Below, in pieces: positions 9,335 through 17,212 of a DNA stretch of 31,883 nucleotides; the first letter of the stretch is position 1; the number at the start of each line of letters is the position of its first letter. Both the position numbers and the translations under genes were made by a program. This DNA comes from a virus. The notes under the pieces are model-generated. The model worked only from the letters and a program-made list of their open reading frames with translations, ran no database searches and was not told the DNA's origin. The DNA is taken from the IMG/VR virus record IMGVR_UViG_3300024978_000002, one strand, 5' to 3'.

Positions 9335-10743
9335 TAACTGTTAAAGACGTATCCTCATCACGGAACCTCCTAATCTTTTGTATCTCTGATTACAGGGCCA
9401 AAGTGATGAGTTCAATGAAGAGTTGTGAAAGCGTCAGGCGTCTCCCGTTCATCAGACAAGAAATCAATGTCACAATCGACGGCGACTTAACCGATGCATC
9501 TAGACAACCGCTTTCACTAGAACAGTTCAACCAAATAACTGGTCTTGACGTCGACGATCTCAATGTAGTCGTCGCAGTCACGTTCCAGAAAGTTAATGTG
9601 GCGCCTTTTTTCTGGAAGTTTCTCAAAGCACTTAAGACAGTCGAAGATGTTTCGACTCCTGAGTCTTTAACCATTGGGTTGAAGGTACCTGTCGAATCCG
9701 TAGAGTATCCTGGATTCTTCATCATTCCCTACTTTGGTAATTACCTCATAACCCCAGATGGTTGGTTGATCAAAAAATCAACCGGACAAACTATCCAGGC
9801 TTCGCAAGGTCCACTTGGCTATTACACCTTCAGAATGACTGATGATTCGGGTCATTGTCAAAACCAACTCAGACATCGTATTCTCTGCTACGCTTTCAAA
9901 TCCTACCCAGCCGATGTATCGGACCTCGATGTAAACCACATCGACGGTGTTCCTGGGAATGACGGACTTGAAAATTTAGAGTGGACGACACGATCAGGAA
10001 ATATGTTACACGCATACGACCACGGGCTCCGTTCTGACAATAAACCAGTTCAAGTTAGGGACATAGAGGCGAAGAGGACTCTTATTTTCGGCAGTTATTC
10101 TGCCGCTGCGAGATTCCTCGGTGTCACTGAGACGACGATATCAAATCGAGTTAAATCACTCGGTTATCGTTCCTTTAGTGGATATCAATTTCGTTCTCAC
10201 CCTAGTGACGAACCCTGGCCAGAGGTTGGTGAAGAAGGTGGCAAATATTTGGTAGAATTTCCTGACGGTAACAGTAAGAAATGTGGCTGTGACGAAGCCG
10301 CTAGACTGGCTGGAACTACAAGGACAAGTTTACTGCGACTCCTCCGAGAAGGAAGAACGCAGGGAACCACATTGAACAAAGTGATTCGACTTTAACAAAA
10401 GTTCCCTCAATCTTAAACGGTTGAGTGATTTCTCTCTAATTGACTGGAAACCCCTGAGAGCTCTTCCTACCAAGCTGCTCGTGGAAACACGATAGTGGCT
10501 GCGCTAATCACGCAGGTACGGTAACAAAGGAAGAGATTGGGCAATCAGCAGCGAAGCCTCTTCCTAAAGAGGAACGTTCAACGACTATCCGGTAGCGCGG
10601 AGTAGGGTCAAGTGACCCGAAATGGGAGACACCTGACGGCCTGACAAGGTACAAGGTGAAGATATAGTCTGGTCATCCAGGGAAAACCTGGAGTCGCGGA
10701 TAGTGCCGCAGGTAGAGTTTAACGAACTCTATTGAACATAACG
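9335..10743 (+). mobile_element. Group I intron (1409 nt) in vRNAP beta', carrying an HNH endonuclease
   Basis: Exon ends in U (9334), intron ends in G (10743), and joining gives GAT|TTC GAT GGC GAT = DFDGD. Core elements: P AATTGACTGGAAA (10438-10450), Q AATCAGCAGC (10543-10552), R GTTCAACGACTA (10576-10587), S AAGATATAGTCT (10659-10670). P7 GACTA/TAGTC, P3 TCTCTC/GGGAGA, P9 hairpins at about 10676-10731. Confidence 0.93.
9403..10395 (+). CDS. Intron-encoded HNH homing endonuclease (NUMOD4-like + HNH + C-terminal HTH repeats; I-HmuI-like architecture)
   Basis: IPYFGNYLITPDG (NUMOD4-like), HRILCYAF...VNHIDGVPGNDGLENLEWTTRSGNMLHA (HNH), FGSYSAAARFLGVTETTISNR and CDEAARLAGTTRTSLLRLL (HTH-like). 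Visibly more AT-rich than the flanking exons. Start codon uncertain. Confidence 0.9.
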   Translation: MMSSMKSCESVRRLPFIRQEINVTIDGDLTDASRQPLSLEQFNQITGLDVDDLNVVVAVTFQKVNVAPFFWKFLKALKTVEDVSTPESLTIGLKVPVESVEYPGFFIIPYFGNYLITPDGWLIKKSTGQTIQASQGPLGYYTFRMTDDSGHCQNQLRHRILCYAFKSYPADVSDLDVNHIDGVPGNDGLENLEWTTRSGNMLHAYDHGLRSDNKPVQVRDIEAKRTLIFGSYSAAARFLGVTETTISNRVKSLGYRSFSGYQFRSHPSDEPWPEVGEEGGKYLVEFPDGNSKKCGCDEAARLAGTTRTSLLRLLREGRTQGTTLNKVIRL

Positions 10744-12229: not shown

Positions 12230-12262
12230 ACCGGGAGTACGCCATGGCGTACTCCCGGTTTT
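12230..12262 (+). terminator. Rho-independent terminator-like palindrome
   Basis: Perfect 30-bp palindrome ACCGGGAGTACGCCATGGCGTACTCCCGGT (12230-12259) running into TTT, just after the stop at 12210. Confidence 0.7.
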
Positions 12263-12285
12263 CCCCTGTCTTGAAGGCCTACGGA

Positions 12286-15200
12286 ATGATGCCCGATAAA
12301 ACCTCTTTGCAATGGTCGCTGCTCCCGACCACCCCGGAGCGCTTTCCGCCGGCTCAGGCGGAACATACCCCCGAACCGCTTGAAGACGCGTTACTGACGT
12401 TTACCGGTGAAGGGACGGGTTCGCAAGTCAGCCTGGAAGGCATGCCTCTCTACACGCCGTATTTCCGACGTTATGGTGTCCTGCGCGCGGTTCAGCTCGC
12501 GGTACCTCGAATCAATACGTTGGAGACGCTTGAACTCCCGAAGGAAACCATCCTCCATTACATGGCGGAGGACGAAACCGAGATGGGCCTCTCGCAATCA
12601 GCGCCGATCCTGCACAACAATACCCGCGTGGTGTTCACTGAACACCAGTTGATTCTGGCAGACCAATTGGGTAATCCACGGAAACTCCCGTTGCCGGCCA
12701 TGTCCATGATTCGCGATTACCATCGGCAGAACCGTCGGACACGTAATTTGCTGCGGCCGGAAACAGCGATGCGGGACGTGAACACGATCGTCGTAGAGAA
12801 CTATGCGATCTTAAGTCACTTGTACCGTTATCCCACGAACTATTTTCGGGGTTACTACAAGTGGTGGAATCTCCAAGCAACACTTTGGGAGAACGCAGGG
12901 CGGTTGGGTCGTGAGTATCCGCGTAGGAACCAGTTTCTCCAGTGTCGCCTTCCGACGCTACTCCCGACGCTAGCGCAATTGCGGCGTGGTGAGAACGGGA
13001 TGACACGTAATTTACTGGCGGCGTTTACACAATCGGAGTCTCTGTTTATTCTAGAGATCTGGAAGTGGTTGGGTCTGAAACGCGAGACATCGGTGTTGTC
13101 CAAAGCAGCCCCGGAAGATCTGGCGCAGATGAACCTGATCTTTATCGAGAAAGACCGGTGGTTGGTGTTGAACCTGGGGCTTCTGGATAAATGGCGCAAG
13201 CGTCCCGAACCCGAAGCGGGTTGGGAAGACCACGCTGGCGTACTGGACACACTGATTCTCCAGAAGCGTTTCTTGCGTCTACTGATGACATTGCTCGAAG
13301 TGCGCACGGTGGTGGACTCCGAAGAAGCCGCTGACATTCCGGTGGAAGACGACGGTAGTGAACACGCGGAGAGTGCGGTCAGTACGAAAGCGCAAACTGC
13401 ACCACCGGCGGCAGCGATCGACACCATTGCCAAGCAAACACCGACGCCGACACAACCTGACTCTGTCCAACCTGAGTCGACTGTTGTCGTTACGGCGAAG
13501 GCTGAACCGGTCAAACTGACGATCCCTACGGAAAACGGTAAAACCACTAAGGTTAAGCTCACTGCGAATCTCAACCTGGACAAGCTCCCCGATGCACTCG
13601 TGGAAGAAACACCTGAGAACATCCGGTTGATCGACCAAGCGATCACGAAAGACCTCGAAGCACTCGACCATCTGATGGCTAAGTACGAGACCGAAGTCTC
13701 TGAAGGTCAAGAAGTCGCACCCGCCAGTACCGTGGCCGGTGACGTTACCACGATGCTCAAGTACAAACCGGAGGAGCGTTCACTCCAAAGTAGTGTCATG
13801 CATCGCGTGGACCAACAAGCCGATGCGGGACTGATCTCTGGTGCGGAGTACAGGCGCATGCAGGCGCTCTCTGCAGCGTTCCAGCGACTACCCAATCCGT
13901 TCGGTCAGGGTGTGCTGTCGGATATGACAGTAATCCAACCCGAAGAGCTCGCACTGGCTACTGAGACGATTGCACCAGACATGGGGCTCGTCCCGGACAA
14001 GACGATGCTGAAAAGTGTCGTGGATGAATTTGACACGAAATATCTTGACAAGGTCTACCGAAAAGACCTAGTGCGGATGGTGTTAGGCCTTCAGCACGCA
14101 GGTATTGCGGTCACTGGGTTCTCGATGGATGAGTACCAAGACGCTCTGAACCACTACGAGAAGTACACGTTGCAGTTAACCCCCGTCGTGGGTAAAGTCT
14201 CAACGGTGTACTTCAAACTACCGAAGATCGAAGACGATGGTACGTACTCTGACAATGGGTCAAAATATCGCCTGCGTAAACAGCGAATTGACGTACCCTT
14301 GCGTAAACTATCGCCATCACGGGTAGCTCTCACGAGTTACTACGGCAAAGTGTTTGTGAACCGATCGGAAAAGCAGGTAAACAACTACGCCGGGTGGTTG
14401 ACGAATCAAGTCGCCGCTACCGCGATTGACGACAGTAATGACCGTATCACGCAAGCTTTGCTAGCGGATGTCTCCGACAGTGAACTTAAAGTTCCTCGGT
14501 TGTACGCGATTATGTCGTCACGGTTCCGTTCCTTCCGGGTGTCCTACGACAAAGCTCAATACGACTTCTTCTTCGATTACCATGCTCGTGAGAATTATTT
14601 CGGTAAGGACAAAGTCCAAGCCGTTGAGAAAAACGGTCTAGTCGTGGTCGGTCGTAAGAACGGGCAGTTACTGGTGATGGACGACTCCGACTCTCTCTAC
14701 GAAGTGCAGGGACTAGAGCTGATCAATACCGGTACGACGCTGGAAGAGATTCTTGGCATCGTTGGTAAAGCTCCCGTAGAGATGGCGGAAATCCGCATTT
14801 TCGGTAAGCAAATTCCGGTAGGGCTGTTTCTGGCTTACGAACTAGGTTTGACTGAACTCTTTCGTTTGATGGGTGTGAAACCCCGACGCGTACCGACAGG
14901 TAATCGTTCCTACGTCAACGACGACGAACTCGTCTTGCGGTTTGAAGATGAACTCTGGATCTTCCCACGCGATCGTTCAGCCCGTACGATGATCCTATCA
15001 GGACTGACAGCGTTTGAGTCCGTGACGCGGAATTACTCATCGCATCTGTTCGATCGCAAGGATATCTATTTCAACGTCTTGGAACAAGCGCGGATCGGCG
15101 TACGTTACCTGCGGGAAATGGATTTGATGCGCGACCTGTTCATTGATCCGATCACCGAGGACATCTTGAAAGAGATGGGTGAACCGATCGACTTCATCGC

Positions 15201-15743
15201 ACTGACCATTCGAGCATGTCAGTTACTGGAATCGGACTGGTCGCCGGCCGAGACGGATATGGCATACATGCGTATCAAGGGATACGAACGCATGGCCGGT
15301 GCGGTCTACAGTGAACTAGTGAAAGCCGTTCGACTACAGCGTGCTCGGGGTAGTGCGGCGAATGCGCCCATTGATTTACATCCCGATGCGGTATGGATTG
15401 GCATACAACTCGATCCGGTGAAGAAAGCCGTGGAGGAGTCCAATCCGGTCCACAACGTCCGTGAACGGGAAGAGGTCACGTACAGTGGTGTGGGTGGCCG
15501 TAGTAGTCGGTCCATGGTGGGTCGGACGCGCGTGTTTCATCCGAACGACATGGGTGTGATCTCGGAATCTACCAAAGACTCCGCTGATGTAGCCATCACC
15601 ACATTCATGCCGGCCAACCCTACGCTAACAAGTGTACGTGGTATTGCCCGGCGTTTTGATCCCAAGAAAGACGGCATTACCTCTGTCATGTCCACCCCGG
15701 CACTTCTGGCTCCAGGAGCCGACAGAGACGATCCTAAACGCGT
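12286..15743 (+). CDS. Virion RNA polymerase beta subunit (phiKZ gp178-like), exon 1
   Basis: Beta-like motifs (NGSKYRLRKQRIDVP, VALTSYYGK, RIKGYERMAG, SGVGGRS, DMGVISESTKDSADVA, LLAPGADRDDPKRV). Start placed at ATG 12286/12289 behind GAAGG, because the 12244 ATG lies inside the terminator hairpin. Possible propeptide ending at SLE|G. Confidence 0.9.
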
Positions 15744-16104
15744 ATGAAAGTGCGCCTTTTGGCTAACCCAAAAGAAAACCTCTTTAACTGCTGGGAACTC
15801 TCTTTGAGACAATCAGCAGCCAAACACCTAAGGGCAAGATAAACTCCCCCAATTTCTACATCGCGTCGTGAGACGCTACTTAGGTGAAGGTTCAACGACC
15901 ATCGAAACCACTCCGTTCAGGAGACAAGGGAGTAGAGTAGGGCGCAAGCGCGCCTCCGAAAGGAACAACCGGACTACGGGGCCGGGAATACGAAATGGGA
16001 GGCTACTGTTTTCACAGTAGGTGATATGGTCTGCTCCTCTAGGTGACTAGGGGCGGGTGTCTTTAGCACACCGTCGTGGTGTAGCGAACCACGAGGACAA
16101 AAGG
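15744..16104 (+). mobile_element. ORF-less group I intron (361 nt) in vRNAP beta
   Basis: P1 CGCGU|AUGAAA-GUGCG with a U.G pair at the splice site; P10 ATGAAA (15744-15749) complements TTTCAT (16108-16113); terminal G at 16104. P AACTGCTGGGAA (15786), Q AATCAGCAGC (15811), R GTTCAACGACCA (15890), S GTGATATGGTCT (16021); P7 GACCA/TGGTC. Splicing gives CGC GT|A AAT TTC = R-V-N-F in frame. Confidence 0.92.
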
Positions 16105-17212
16105 AAATTTCATCCCCATTCAGCAGAGTTCAACGACTTTTGCGAAGGGGTACAAACCCACACCGCTCCGGACAGGCTATGAGCATGTCCTGGCACATCG
16201 GGTGGATGAATCATTTGCGGTCTCAGCGAAGAAAGCCGGTAAGGTCACGTCACTTTCTCCGAAAGGTCTGGTGGTGACTTACGAAGACGGAACGACCAAA
16301 GCAGTCTCTTTAGGGCGGCGTTTCGGTAAGGCGGCTGGGTTAGTCCTACCCCACGAGATGGCGACGGAACTGAAAGAAGGACAGTCCTTTAAGGCGGGTG
16401 ATATACTCTCCTACAACGCGCTGTATTTCCAACCTGACATTCTGACTCCGGGTCAGGTTGTGTGGAAAGCTGGTGTGTTGGTGACCACTGCCATTTTAGA
16501 AAGTCCCGATACACTGGAGGACTCTTCCGTGATTTCTGCGGAGACTGCGAAACTACTTGAGACGCAAATCACGTATGTACGAGACATCGTGGTGGGGTTC
16601 AAACAAACCATCCACGACCTCGTTCAAGAAGGGGAGAGCGTAGAGATCGACAGTATTCTATGTATGATCGAAGATGCCGTTACAGCCGAGAATCATCTCT
16701 TTGACGACCAATCGGTTGATCTTCTGAGACTCTTGTCTGCGAACGCTCCACGAGCCAAACATAAGGGTATAGTCGAGAAAGTCGAGGTGTACTACCACGG
16801 CGACCTCGACGACATGTCCCCTTCGTTAGCGGAGATTGCCAACGCCAGTGATCGTGAACGTAAGCGAGCGGCGCGGGCGTTGCAGGCCAAAGCCTTGACG
16901 GGTAAAGTGGATGCATCCACTCGAATCCAATCCAAACCCTTGACAGCCGATAACCTTTTAATCCGCGTGTACATCACGTCGGATGTCGCCGCTTCGGCAG
17001 GTGATAAGGGAGTCTTCGCCAACCAAATGAAATCCGTCTTCGGACGGGTGATGTCTGGTGTCAACGAAACGGCTTCAGGTATCCCTCTGGGAGCGATCTT
17101 CAGTTACACGTCGATCTCGAACAGAATTGTCAGAAGTCCTGAACTGATTGGTGTTAGTTCAACGCTTCTGAAGTTGATCTCCCAACGCGTTGTCAAGGCG
17201 TACAAAGGTTAA
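16105..17212 (+). CDS. Virion RNA polymerase beta subunit, exon 2 (spliced product ~1521 aa)
   Basis: The frame of ORF 16202 is open back to 16106 (NFIPIQQSSTTFAKGYKPTPLRTGYEHVLAHR). Contains beta motifs TLEDSSVIS and GDKGVFANQMKSV. Confidence 0.9.

Follow-up and report, generated by a model that had tools for sequence, protein, structure and literature searches.

An ORF-less group I intron of IA type predicted in the virion RNA polymerase beta gene of an uncultivated jumbo phage

Introduction

Phage group I introns of subgroup IA2 include those of T4 (td, nrdB and nrdD), SPO1 and Twort. The closest described counterpart of the locus studied here is the gp210 intron of PhiPA3, which interrupts the same beta gene (gp211/gp209) within the same conserved motif in a nucleus-forming jumbo phage (Birkholz et al. 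2024, Science, PMC11620839). Its insertion site, designated here as the DD site, lies directly behind two aspartate codons, the second of which aligns with D675 of E. coli RpoB (PMC11620839). In Pseudomonas phage 201phi2-1 (gp273/274) and in HPP-Temi, the DD site of this gene and motif is occupied by ORF-less introns of about 340–350 nt with Rfam scores of 87.4 and 70.5 bits, respectively; the beta CDS of 201phi2-1 is already annotated as joined ("interrupted by a mobile…"). DD-site introns with an HNH gene are found in 2050HW and C-ZP2022, and the site is also occupied in phiRU, HHBS8_1 and IMG/VR loci such as L074. In the Elvirus phages phiRU (L005:3758-4260) and HHBS8_1 (L019:2586-3000), the insertion at or near the DD site has a length of about 400–500 nt; it gave no Rfam match at gathering score and may be a divergent or degenerate intron.

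The presence of such elements and their splicing are separate matters. ONT-cappable-seq of phiKZ gave no evidence of splicing at three predicted intron loci under the conditions tested (PMC10914365), so that the activity of introns in jumbo-phage RNA polymerase (RNAP) genes is not to be assumed from sequence alone. The phiKZ proteins gp71-73 are nevertheless treated in the field as one polypeptide (PMC8287921).

Here, we describe an intron in the window, by which we mean the whole stretch of DNA analysed, 31,883 nt of the IMG/VR virus record IMGVR_UViG_3300024978_000002. The window derives from a 50-kb IMG/VR viral contig with a CheckV completeness of 18%, and its source phage is related to the Xanthomonas phages RTH11 and LucasX. 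With a probability of roughly nine in ten, positions 15744-16104 are a phage IA-type group I intron without a homing-endonuclease gene, inserted in the virion RNAP (vRNAP) beta gene (phiKZ gp178 homologue) of an uncultivated jumbo phage, and standard splicing would yield one protein of 1535 aa. This reading is based on covariance-model membership, exact colinearity after excision, covariation in the 3′ domain and ORF-bearing homologues at the same site; catalysis by the window intron and the history of its ORF loss are what we infer in addition.

The interrupted beta gene

Two of the ORFs called on the plus strand, 12244-15747 (1167 aa) and 16202-17212 (336 aa), flank a gap of about 450 nt. 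Removal of exactly 361 nt joins them into a single ORF of 1535 aa, for which the junction-spanning peptide …DDPKRVNFIPIQ… is predicted. Across …ADRDDPKRV|NFIPIQ… the spliced protein aligns without any gap with the uninterrupted proteins of RTH11 (1439 aa) and LucasX (1463 aa), which are annotated as "RNA polymerase beta subunit" and to which it is 69–70% identical overall. Eight loci of IMG/VR relatives are likewise uninterrupted at the exact junction point, and the junction-spanning query is covered to 80% or more in one place in 264 of the 284 phage records that contain this segment of the gene. The first-pass annotation had taken the two ORFs for one beta subunit of about 1521 aa; the gapless alignment bears out the single subunit, and its length is corrected to 1535 aa.

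A Pfam search of both exons gave no family. Because the phage beta protein is too divergent for Pfam, its identity rests on tblastn matches to phiKZ gp178 and to annotated RNAP beta genes. The last 250 aa of exon 1 share 46% amino acid identity with PHIKZ178 and 83% with the beta subunit of RTH11.

From 16106, the frame stays open for 32 codons up to the GTG at 16202 that was called as start, the same number as previously proposed to be recovered by splicing. In comparison with RTH11, LucasX and L007, the three closest relatives used for this analysis, 14–18 of these codons differ by synonymous changes only and 4–5 differ in the encoded amino acid. The 32 codons lack their own start codon, and the pattern of differences shows that they evolve under purifying selection. 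A Shine-Dalgarno-like sequence was sought before 16202 and not found, unlike in neighbouring genes. Selection on the codons together with the missing Shine-Dalgarno-like sequence argues that they would be translated, which would require removal of the 361 nt.

The same observations bear on the reading that beta is a naturally split gene, in which polypeptides of 1167 aa and 336 aa, the latter started at GTG 16202, would assemble without splicing and the RNA between them would be a dead intron relic. Such an organisation has precedents in the RNAP subunits of phiKZ-like phages, which are naturally divided among several polypeptides (PMC8287921), and it agrees with the failure of ONT-cappable-seq to detect splicing of predicted phiKZ introns (PMC10914365). 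However, the two polypeptides would part within the conserved motif DDPKRV|NFIPIQ, the 32 codons under purifying selection would be lost, and the second polypeptide would start behind no Shine-Dalgarno-like sequence. Moreover, beta is continuous in every close relative, and the helices and junctions of the catalytic core are all intact (Table 1). We consider a split gene very improbable and discuss the locus as an interrupted one.

Identity and boundaries of the intron

In an Rfam search of the whole window, two group I matches exceeded the gathering score, at 10384-10693 and at 15734-16053. The latter match, which belongs to the plus-strand element 15744-16104, covers model positions 1-253 (full) of RF00028 with 54.6 bits and an E-value of 2.1e-11, that is 4.6 bits above the gathering score of 50. 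This is near the threshold; long insertions in the periphery and the minimal P5 lower the score. The covariance-model search named in the first-pass annotation has thereby recovered the group I core which that annotation had placed in the gap. Shuffled sequences served as reference for the minimum free energy of the whole element, which gave a z-score of -4.1. No ORF of at least 60 aa was found inside the intron, the longest internal one comprising 50 aa; the homing-endonuclease gene of mobile group I introns is absent, and the intron is ORF-less as described at first.

Exon 1 ends in …AAACGCGU with U15743, which pairs with G15752 in P1. The intron ends with G16104 (…GGACAAAAGG), and exon 2 begins at A16105 with AAAUUUCAU. 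Both the terminal G, which matches the tail of the intron family described below, and the proposed splice within a Val codon hold to the nucleotide: the junction …CGCGU + AAAUUU… recreates the codon as GT|A. An in-frame UGA (15745-15747) immediately follows the 5′ splice site. The Rfam model does not reach the last 51 nt of the intron, consisting of P9.1, P9.2 and the tail, which show conservation across a large family of introns. The end of the Rfam match, G16053, was considered as an alternative 3′ splice site and rejected, as the downstream frame has stops and the family alignment puts P9.1, P9.2 and the GGACA tail within the intron.

The other Rfam match (67.5 bits, 10384-10693) belongs to a second predicted group I intron of the window, 9335-10743, which splits the beta′-like gene located upstream within its catalytic motif. 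Exon 1 of this gene ends with …LAGLGAD, and exon 2 (FDGDTASF…) from about 10744 has only about 58 codons. A 330-aa HNH_3 ORF (9403-10395) separates the 5′ splice site from the ribozyme core. At the equivalent place, RTH11 (L001:1087-1410) and LucasX (L002:1080-1418) have an ORF-less intron, with exons that are unjoined in the records.

Secondary structure and proposed splicing

The predicted fold is summarised in Table 1. P3, P4, P5, P6, P7 and P8 are all fully paired, and no mismatch occurs in any core helix. Several elements agree with the first description of the locus, namely a P1 with U.G at the splice site, a minimal P5 and an enlarged P6 loop containing a GUGA hairpin. The loop L1 is GAAA (15746-15749). 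P7 is preceded by J6/7 (UUCAAC) and is compensated relative to the Rfam and L060 consensus GACUA/UAGUC; P8 is followed by J8/7 (GUGAUAU), of which GAUAU is nearly invariant in the family.

Table 1. Positions of the exons, the predicted intron and its structural elements in the window
Feature	Position	Strand	Details and basis
Exon 1, vRNAP beta (phiKZ gp178 homologue), 1166 codons + 2 nt of Val codon	12244..15743	+	ORF list, homology
Intron, ORF-less group I, IA-type, 361 nt	15744..16104	+	RF00028 54.6 bits; exact excision restores conserved protein
P1, exon GCGU + intron AU with guide GUGCGC (GCGUAU/GUGCGC)	15740-45 / 15750-55	+	6/6 pairs; U15743.G15752
P2 hairpin, UUUUGG/CCAAAA	15757-62 / 15768-73	+	6/6 pairs; L060 CCAGUA/UACUGG fully compensated
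P3, CCUCUU with GGGAGG	15779-84 / 15997-16002	+	6/6 pairs; L060 GACGUC/GGCGUC
P4	15788-94 / 15813-19	+	fully paired; within P4-P6 domain 15788..15890
P5, minimal, 4 bp, UUU loop	15799-802 / 15806-09	+	fully paired
P6	15820-21 / 15889-90	+	fully paired
P6a, CACCUAAG/CUUAGGUG	15825-32 / 15879-86	+	closes 46 nt
Hairpin in P6a loop, GCGUC-GUGA-GACGC	15863-76	+	fully paired
P7, guanosine-binding helix, GACCA with UGGUC	15897-901 / 16027-31	+	5/5 pairs
P7-P3′ insertion, 95 nt, P7.1/P7.2 region	15902..15996	+	folds
P8 hairpin, CUACUGU-UUUC-ACAGUAG	16003-09 / 16014-20	+	7/7 pairs
P9 hairpin, GUGA (GNRA) loop	16036-42 / 16047-53	+	7/7 pairs
P9.1, GGUGU/ACACC, motif GGCGGGTGTC…AGCACACC	16056-60 / 16068-72	+	fully paired
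P9.2, UCGUGGU/ACCACGA	16074-80 / 16088-94	+	fully paired
3′ tail, GGACAAAAGG, terminal G = omega G 16104	16095..16104	+	GGACA invariant in family alignment
Exon 2, Val third base + 368 codons + stop	16105..17212	+	first 32 codons upstream of called GTG 16202
Candidate P10 partner in exon 2, UUUCAU	16108..16113	+	with AUGAAA 15744-15749 (intron nt 1-6), 6/6 Watson-Crick

The region between P7 and P3′ contains the hairpins CUCC/GGAG and GGCGC-AAGC-GCGCC, followed by the window-specific UCC-GAAA-GGA and CCGG…CCGG. The first of these covaries, with CUAC/GUAG in L066 and CCCC/GGGG in L029, and introns of phiKZ-like phages share 86% identity with about 60 nt of the region. We take the position between P7 and P3′ to be the one that defines P7.1/P7.2 of subgroup IA. 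Hairpins at this place and the presence of P9.1 and P9.2 mark the intron, scored with the general Rfam model, as IA-type (IA2-like). The UCC-GAAA-GGA and CCGG…CCGG hairpins, initially described as extra, are indeed both paired; part of the hairpins in this region, however, is the ordinary P7.1/P7.2 pair of subgroup IA, and only the remaining ~35 nt are an addition specific to the window. The window intron resembles the IA2 introns of phages in P7.1/P7.2, P9.1/P9.2, the GNRA loop L9 and an early in-frame stop, and also in its location within a conserved motif of an essential gene.

The six-pair P10 proposed earlier (AUGAAA/UUUCAU) is present, yet 3 nt of exon 2 separate it from the splice site, and it is absent in the same-site homologue L060; we regard it as plausible only. 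The Asn codon of exon 2 is AAT in the window and, synonymously, AAC in relatives, which gives one extra pair in the candidate P10.

Splicing would follow the standard group I pathway. Upon folding of the pre-mRNA, an external guanosine bound in P7 would attack after U15743, held by the guide GUGCGC via the U.G wobble. The terminal G16104 would then occupy the guanosine site, and the freed 5′ exon would attack after G16104, joining …CGCGU to AAAUUU…. The Val codon within DDPKRV|NFIPIQ would thus be restored and one 1535-aa protein produced, while the UGA at 15745-15747 would stop ribosomes on unspliced RNA.

A conserved 3′ domain marks a family of phage introns

The P9.1 motif GGCGGGTGTC-N1-5-AGCACACC was found in 62 IMG/VR stretches (L020-L081). 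Apart from three apparent chance matches, they have in common J8/7-P7′ (GATATAGTCTG), a GNRA-type P9 loop, P9.1, P9.2 and a GGACA-N-G tail that precedes the 3′ exon. Where the exons are readable (L060, L075, L074, L066 and L016), this tail, as GGACA-N3-5-G, directly abuts the 3′ exon. The predicted 3′ domain of the window intron matches this family of at least 50 phage introns.

Covariation was assessed for the 3′ domain on an alignment of 31 members, and the core was compared pairwise. In this alignment, the proposed helices P9, P9.1 and P9.2 are 97.1% paired and 11 pairs change on both sides, whereas pairing fell to 30–49% in a control in which the partners were slid by 1–3 columns. All seven pairs of P9.2 covary (94.5% paired), as do four of the six tested pairs of P9. 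In the core, introns of Acinetobacter and Bacillus phages match the P3-P4-P5-P4′ stretch of the window intron at about 90% identity. When the whole intron was compared with 50,697 phage records by blastn, only core segments of at most 85 nt matched, and no close full-length relative appeared among cultured phages.

The family is present in many genes, and some contigs carry 3–4 copies (e.g. IMGVR_UViG_3300046096_000189 and 3300014205_000175). In L026:2139-2614 (- strand) and L042:8532-9149 (+ strand), two family copies 346 and 488 nt apart, respectively, form tandem introns. Their 3′ exons start with TTCGAT… and GGTGATAC…, which looks like the FDGD motif of beta′ split by micro-exons.

Introns at the same site and the place of the ORF

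The DD codons of the window occupy 15727-15732, which places the DD site at 15732|15733, and the insertion site of the window intron, designated as the V site, lies 11 nt downstream. It had been set beside the PhiPA3 gp210 site at first; alignment revealed that the two are not the same. The PhiPA3 intron with its HNH endonuclease gp210 is inserted at DD|P, whereas the window intron, which has no gene, follows DDPKR plus GT (DDPKR-GT|A). The ORF-less introns of 201phi2-1 and HPP-Temi are also located 11 nt upstream of the window site and show no extended identity to the window intron beyond core segments.

The V site itself is occupied in other phages. In L060, L075 and L068, exon 1 ends with …AAGCGCGT|A and exon 2 starts with A AAC TTG…, which is the same insertion point and phase as in the window. 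L060 and L075 moreover agree with the window in the exon end …GCGCGT|A, the guide GUGCGC and the intron 3′ end …GGACAGAAGG|AAAC. The P1 pairing of L060 is identical to that of the window, and P2, P3, P7 and P8 are compensated relative to it. In both L060 and L075, a 391-aa HNH_3/I-HmuI-like ORF with NUMOD domains fills L1. In L060, the 5′ splice site precedes the ORF and the guide GUGCGC lies 3′ of its stop codon, so that the ORF fills the P1 loop.

The intron most similar in sequence to that of the window is L066:9-675 (- strand), an element of 667 nt at the V site with the junctions …CGG GT|A … GGACAGTAGG|AAATTTCA; the exon 2 start AAATTTCA is the same as in the window. Only a 58-aa ORF is found in its P1-loop position, and BLAST and Pfam searches for a relation of this ORF to a decayed HNH gene gave no significant link. 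The best guide candidate of L066, AUUCGUU, leads to U-A instead of U.G at the splice site.

In Raoultella phage VB_ZK_P1 (L016, PV662128; 1561-2995), the same codon is interrupted, apparently 1 nt upstream (T|CA), by an intron that lacks annotation, measures about 1.43 kb and contains an HNH gene; here too the best guide candidate gives U-A, not U.G. This intron is below the Rfam gathering score, and its 3′ domain is clearly homologous to that of the window intron. In the record, CDS VBZKP1_271 and _274 are the two vRNAP beta exons, with the HNH gene _272 in the intron between them.

HNH genes of 350–391 aa are present in L060, L075, L068 and VB_ZK_P1, that is in four of the five related V-site introns. 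The window, L060, L075 and L066 have the same predicted splice point and phase, …CGNGT|A … G|AAAYTT, and all V-site relatives share the 3′ domain. In the periphery, a long P5 extension goes with a short P6 in L060 and L066, whereas the window combines a minimal P5 with an enlarged P6a and an insert of about 35 nt after P7.2. In the intron-bearing alleles (window, L060, L075 and L066) the first base of exon 2 is A (Val GTA); the intron-less L001, L002 and L007 have GTG.

The first-pass annotation had suggested that the enlarged P6 loop may be the scar of a lost ORF. We rejected this as the best reading: the homologues at the same site carry their HNH gene in the P1 loop, where the window has GAAA, and the enlarged P6a is not a likely scar because any lost ORF would have been in the P1 loop. 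The T4 td intron has its ORF in P6; in the lineage of the window intron the ORF, when present, is in L1. Most likely, the window intron descends from, or shares an ancestor with, same-site mobile introns that carry a P1-loop HNH nicking endonuclease. The window copy cannot home by itself, because it has no HNH gene.

Lack of the long P5 extension of L060 and L066, for example, might also have left an intron that is of group I by descent unable to splice efficiently, in which case beta would be a pseudogene in a contig of a defective or recently invaded genome. The absence of this extension from the window, the Rfam score near the threshold and the origin of the contig as a metagenomic fragment of 18% CheckV completeness are in line with such a defect. 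Against this, both exons are intact and conserved, the core helices show zero mismatches, and the minimal P3-P4-P5 is about 90% identical to introns of many cultured phages; as these share it, a short P5 would be a normal form. A defective intron has very little chance of being correct, and we keep to a presumably splicing intron in the discussion.

Discussion

The window intron is an ordinary ORF-less phage group I intron in a known intron hot spot, and such introns are common there in related phages. Finding one in the RNAP gene of a jumbo phage is unsurprising, as 201phi2-1 has an annotated one at the neighbouring site. Three aspects are modestly new. First, the same intron family also uses another insertion point, 11 nt away from the gp210 site, in some cases with an HNH gene and in others without. 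Second, the introns at this point form a series, with a full HNH ORF in L060, L075 and L068, a 58-aa ORF in L066 and no ORF in the window. Third, the conserved 3′ domain is well defined and distinguishes a large family of phage introns.

For annotation, the 1167-aa and 336-aa ORFs of the window are to be joined as one vRNAP beta of 1535 aa. Joining also applies to the public records of VB_ZK_P1 (CDS 271/274) and HPP-Temi (CDS0210/0212).

One can speculate on a role of the empty intron in competition between phages. The DD and V sites might together form a contested hot spot in the active-site motif of beta of nucleus-forming phages, where an empty V-site intron would act as a cheap "vaccination" that destroys the target of an L060-type HNH endonuclease and perhaps also breaks the recognition sequence of gp210-like endonucleases at the DD site, 11 bp away. 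We regard this scenario as possible but rather unlikely. Immunity of the window allele to the nuclease of its own site would follow from how homing works; cross-protection against gp210-like DD-site endonucleases, used as weapons by competing phages, is speculation. Alleles with and without the intron, and with and without its ORF, provide ready material on the part that endonucleases and empty introns play in jumbo-phage competition.
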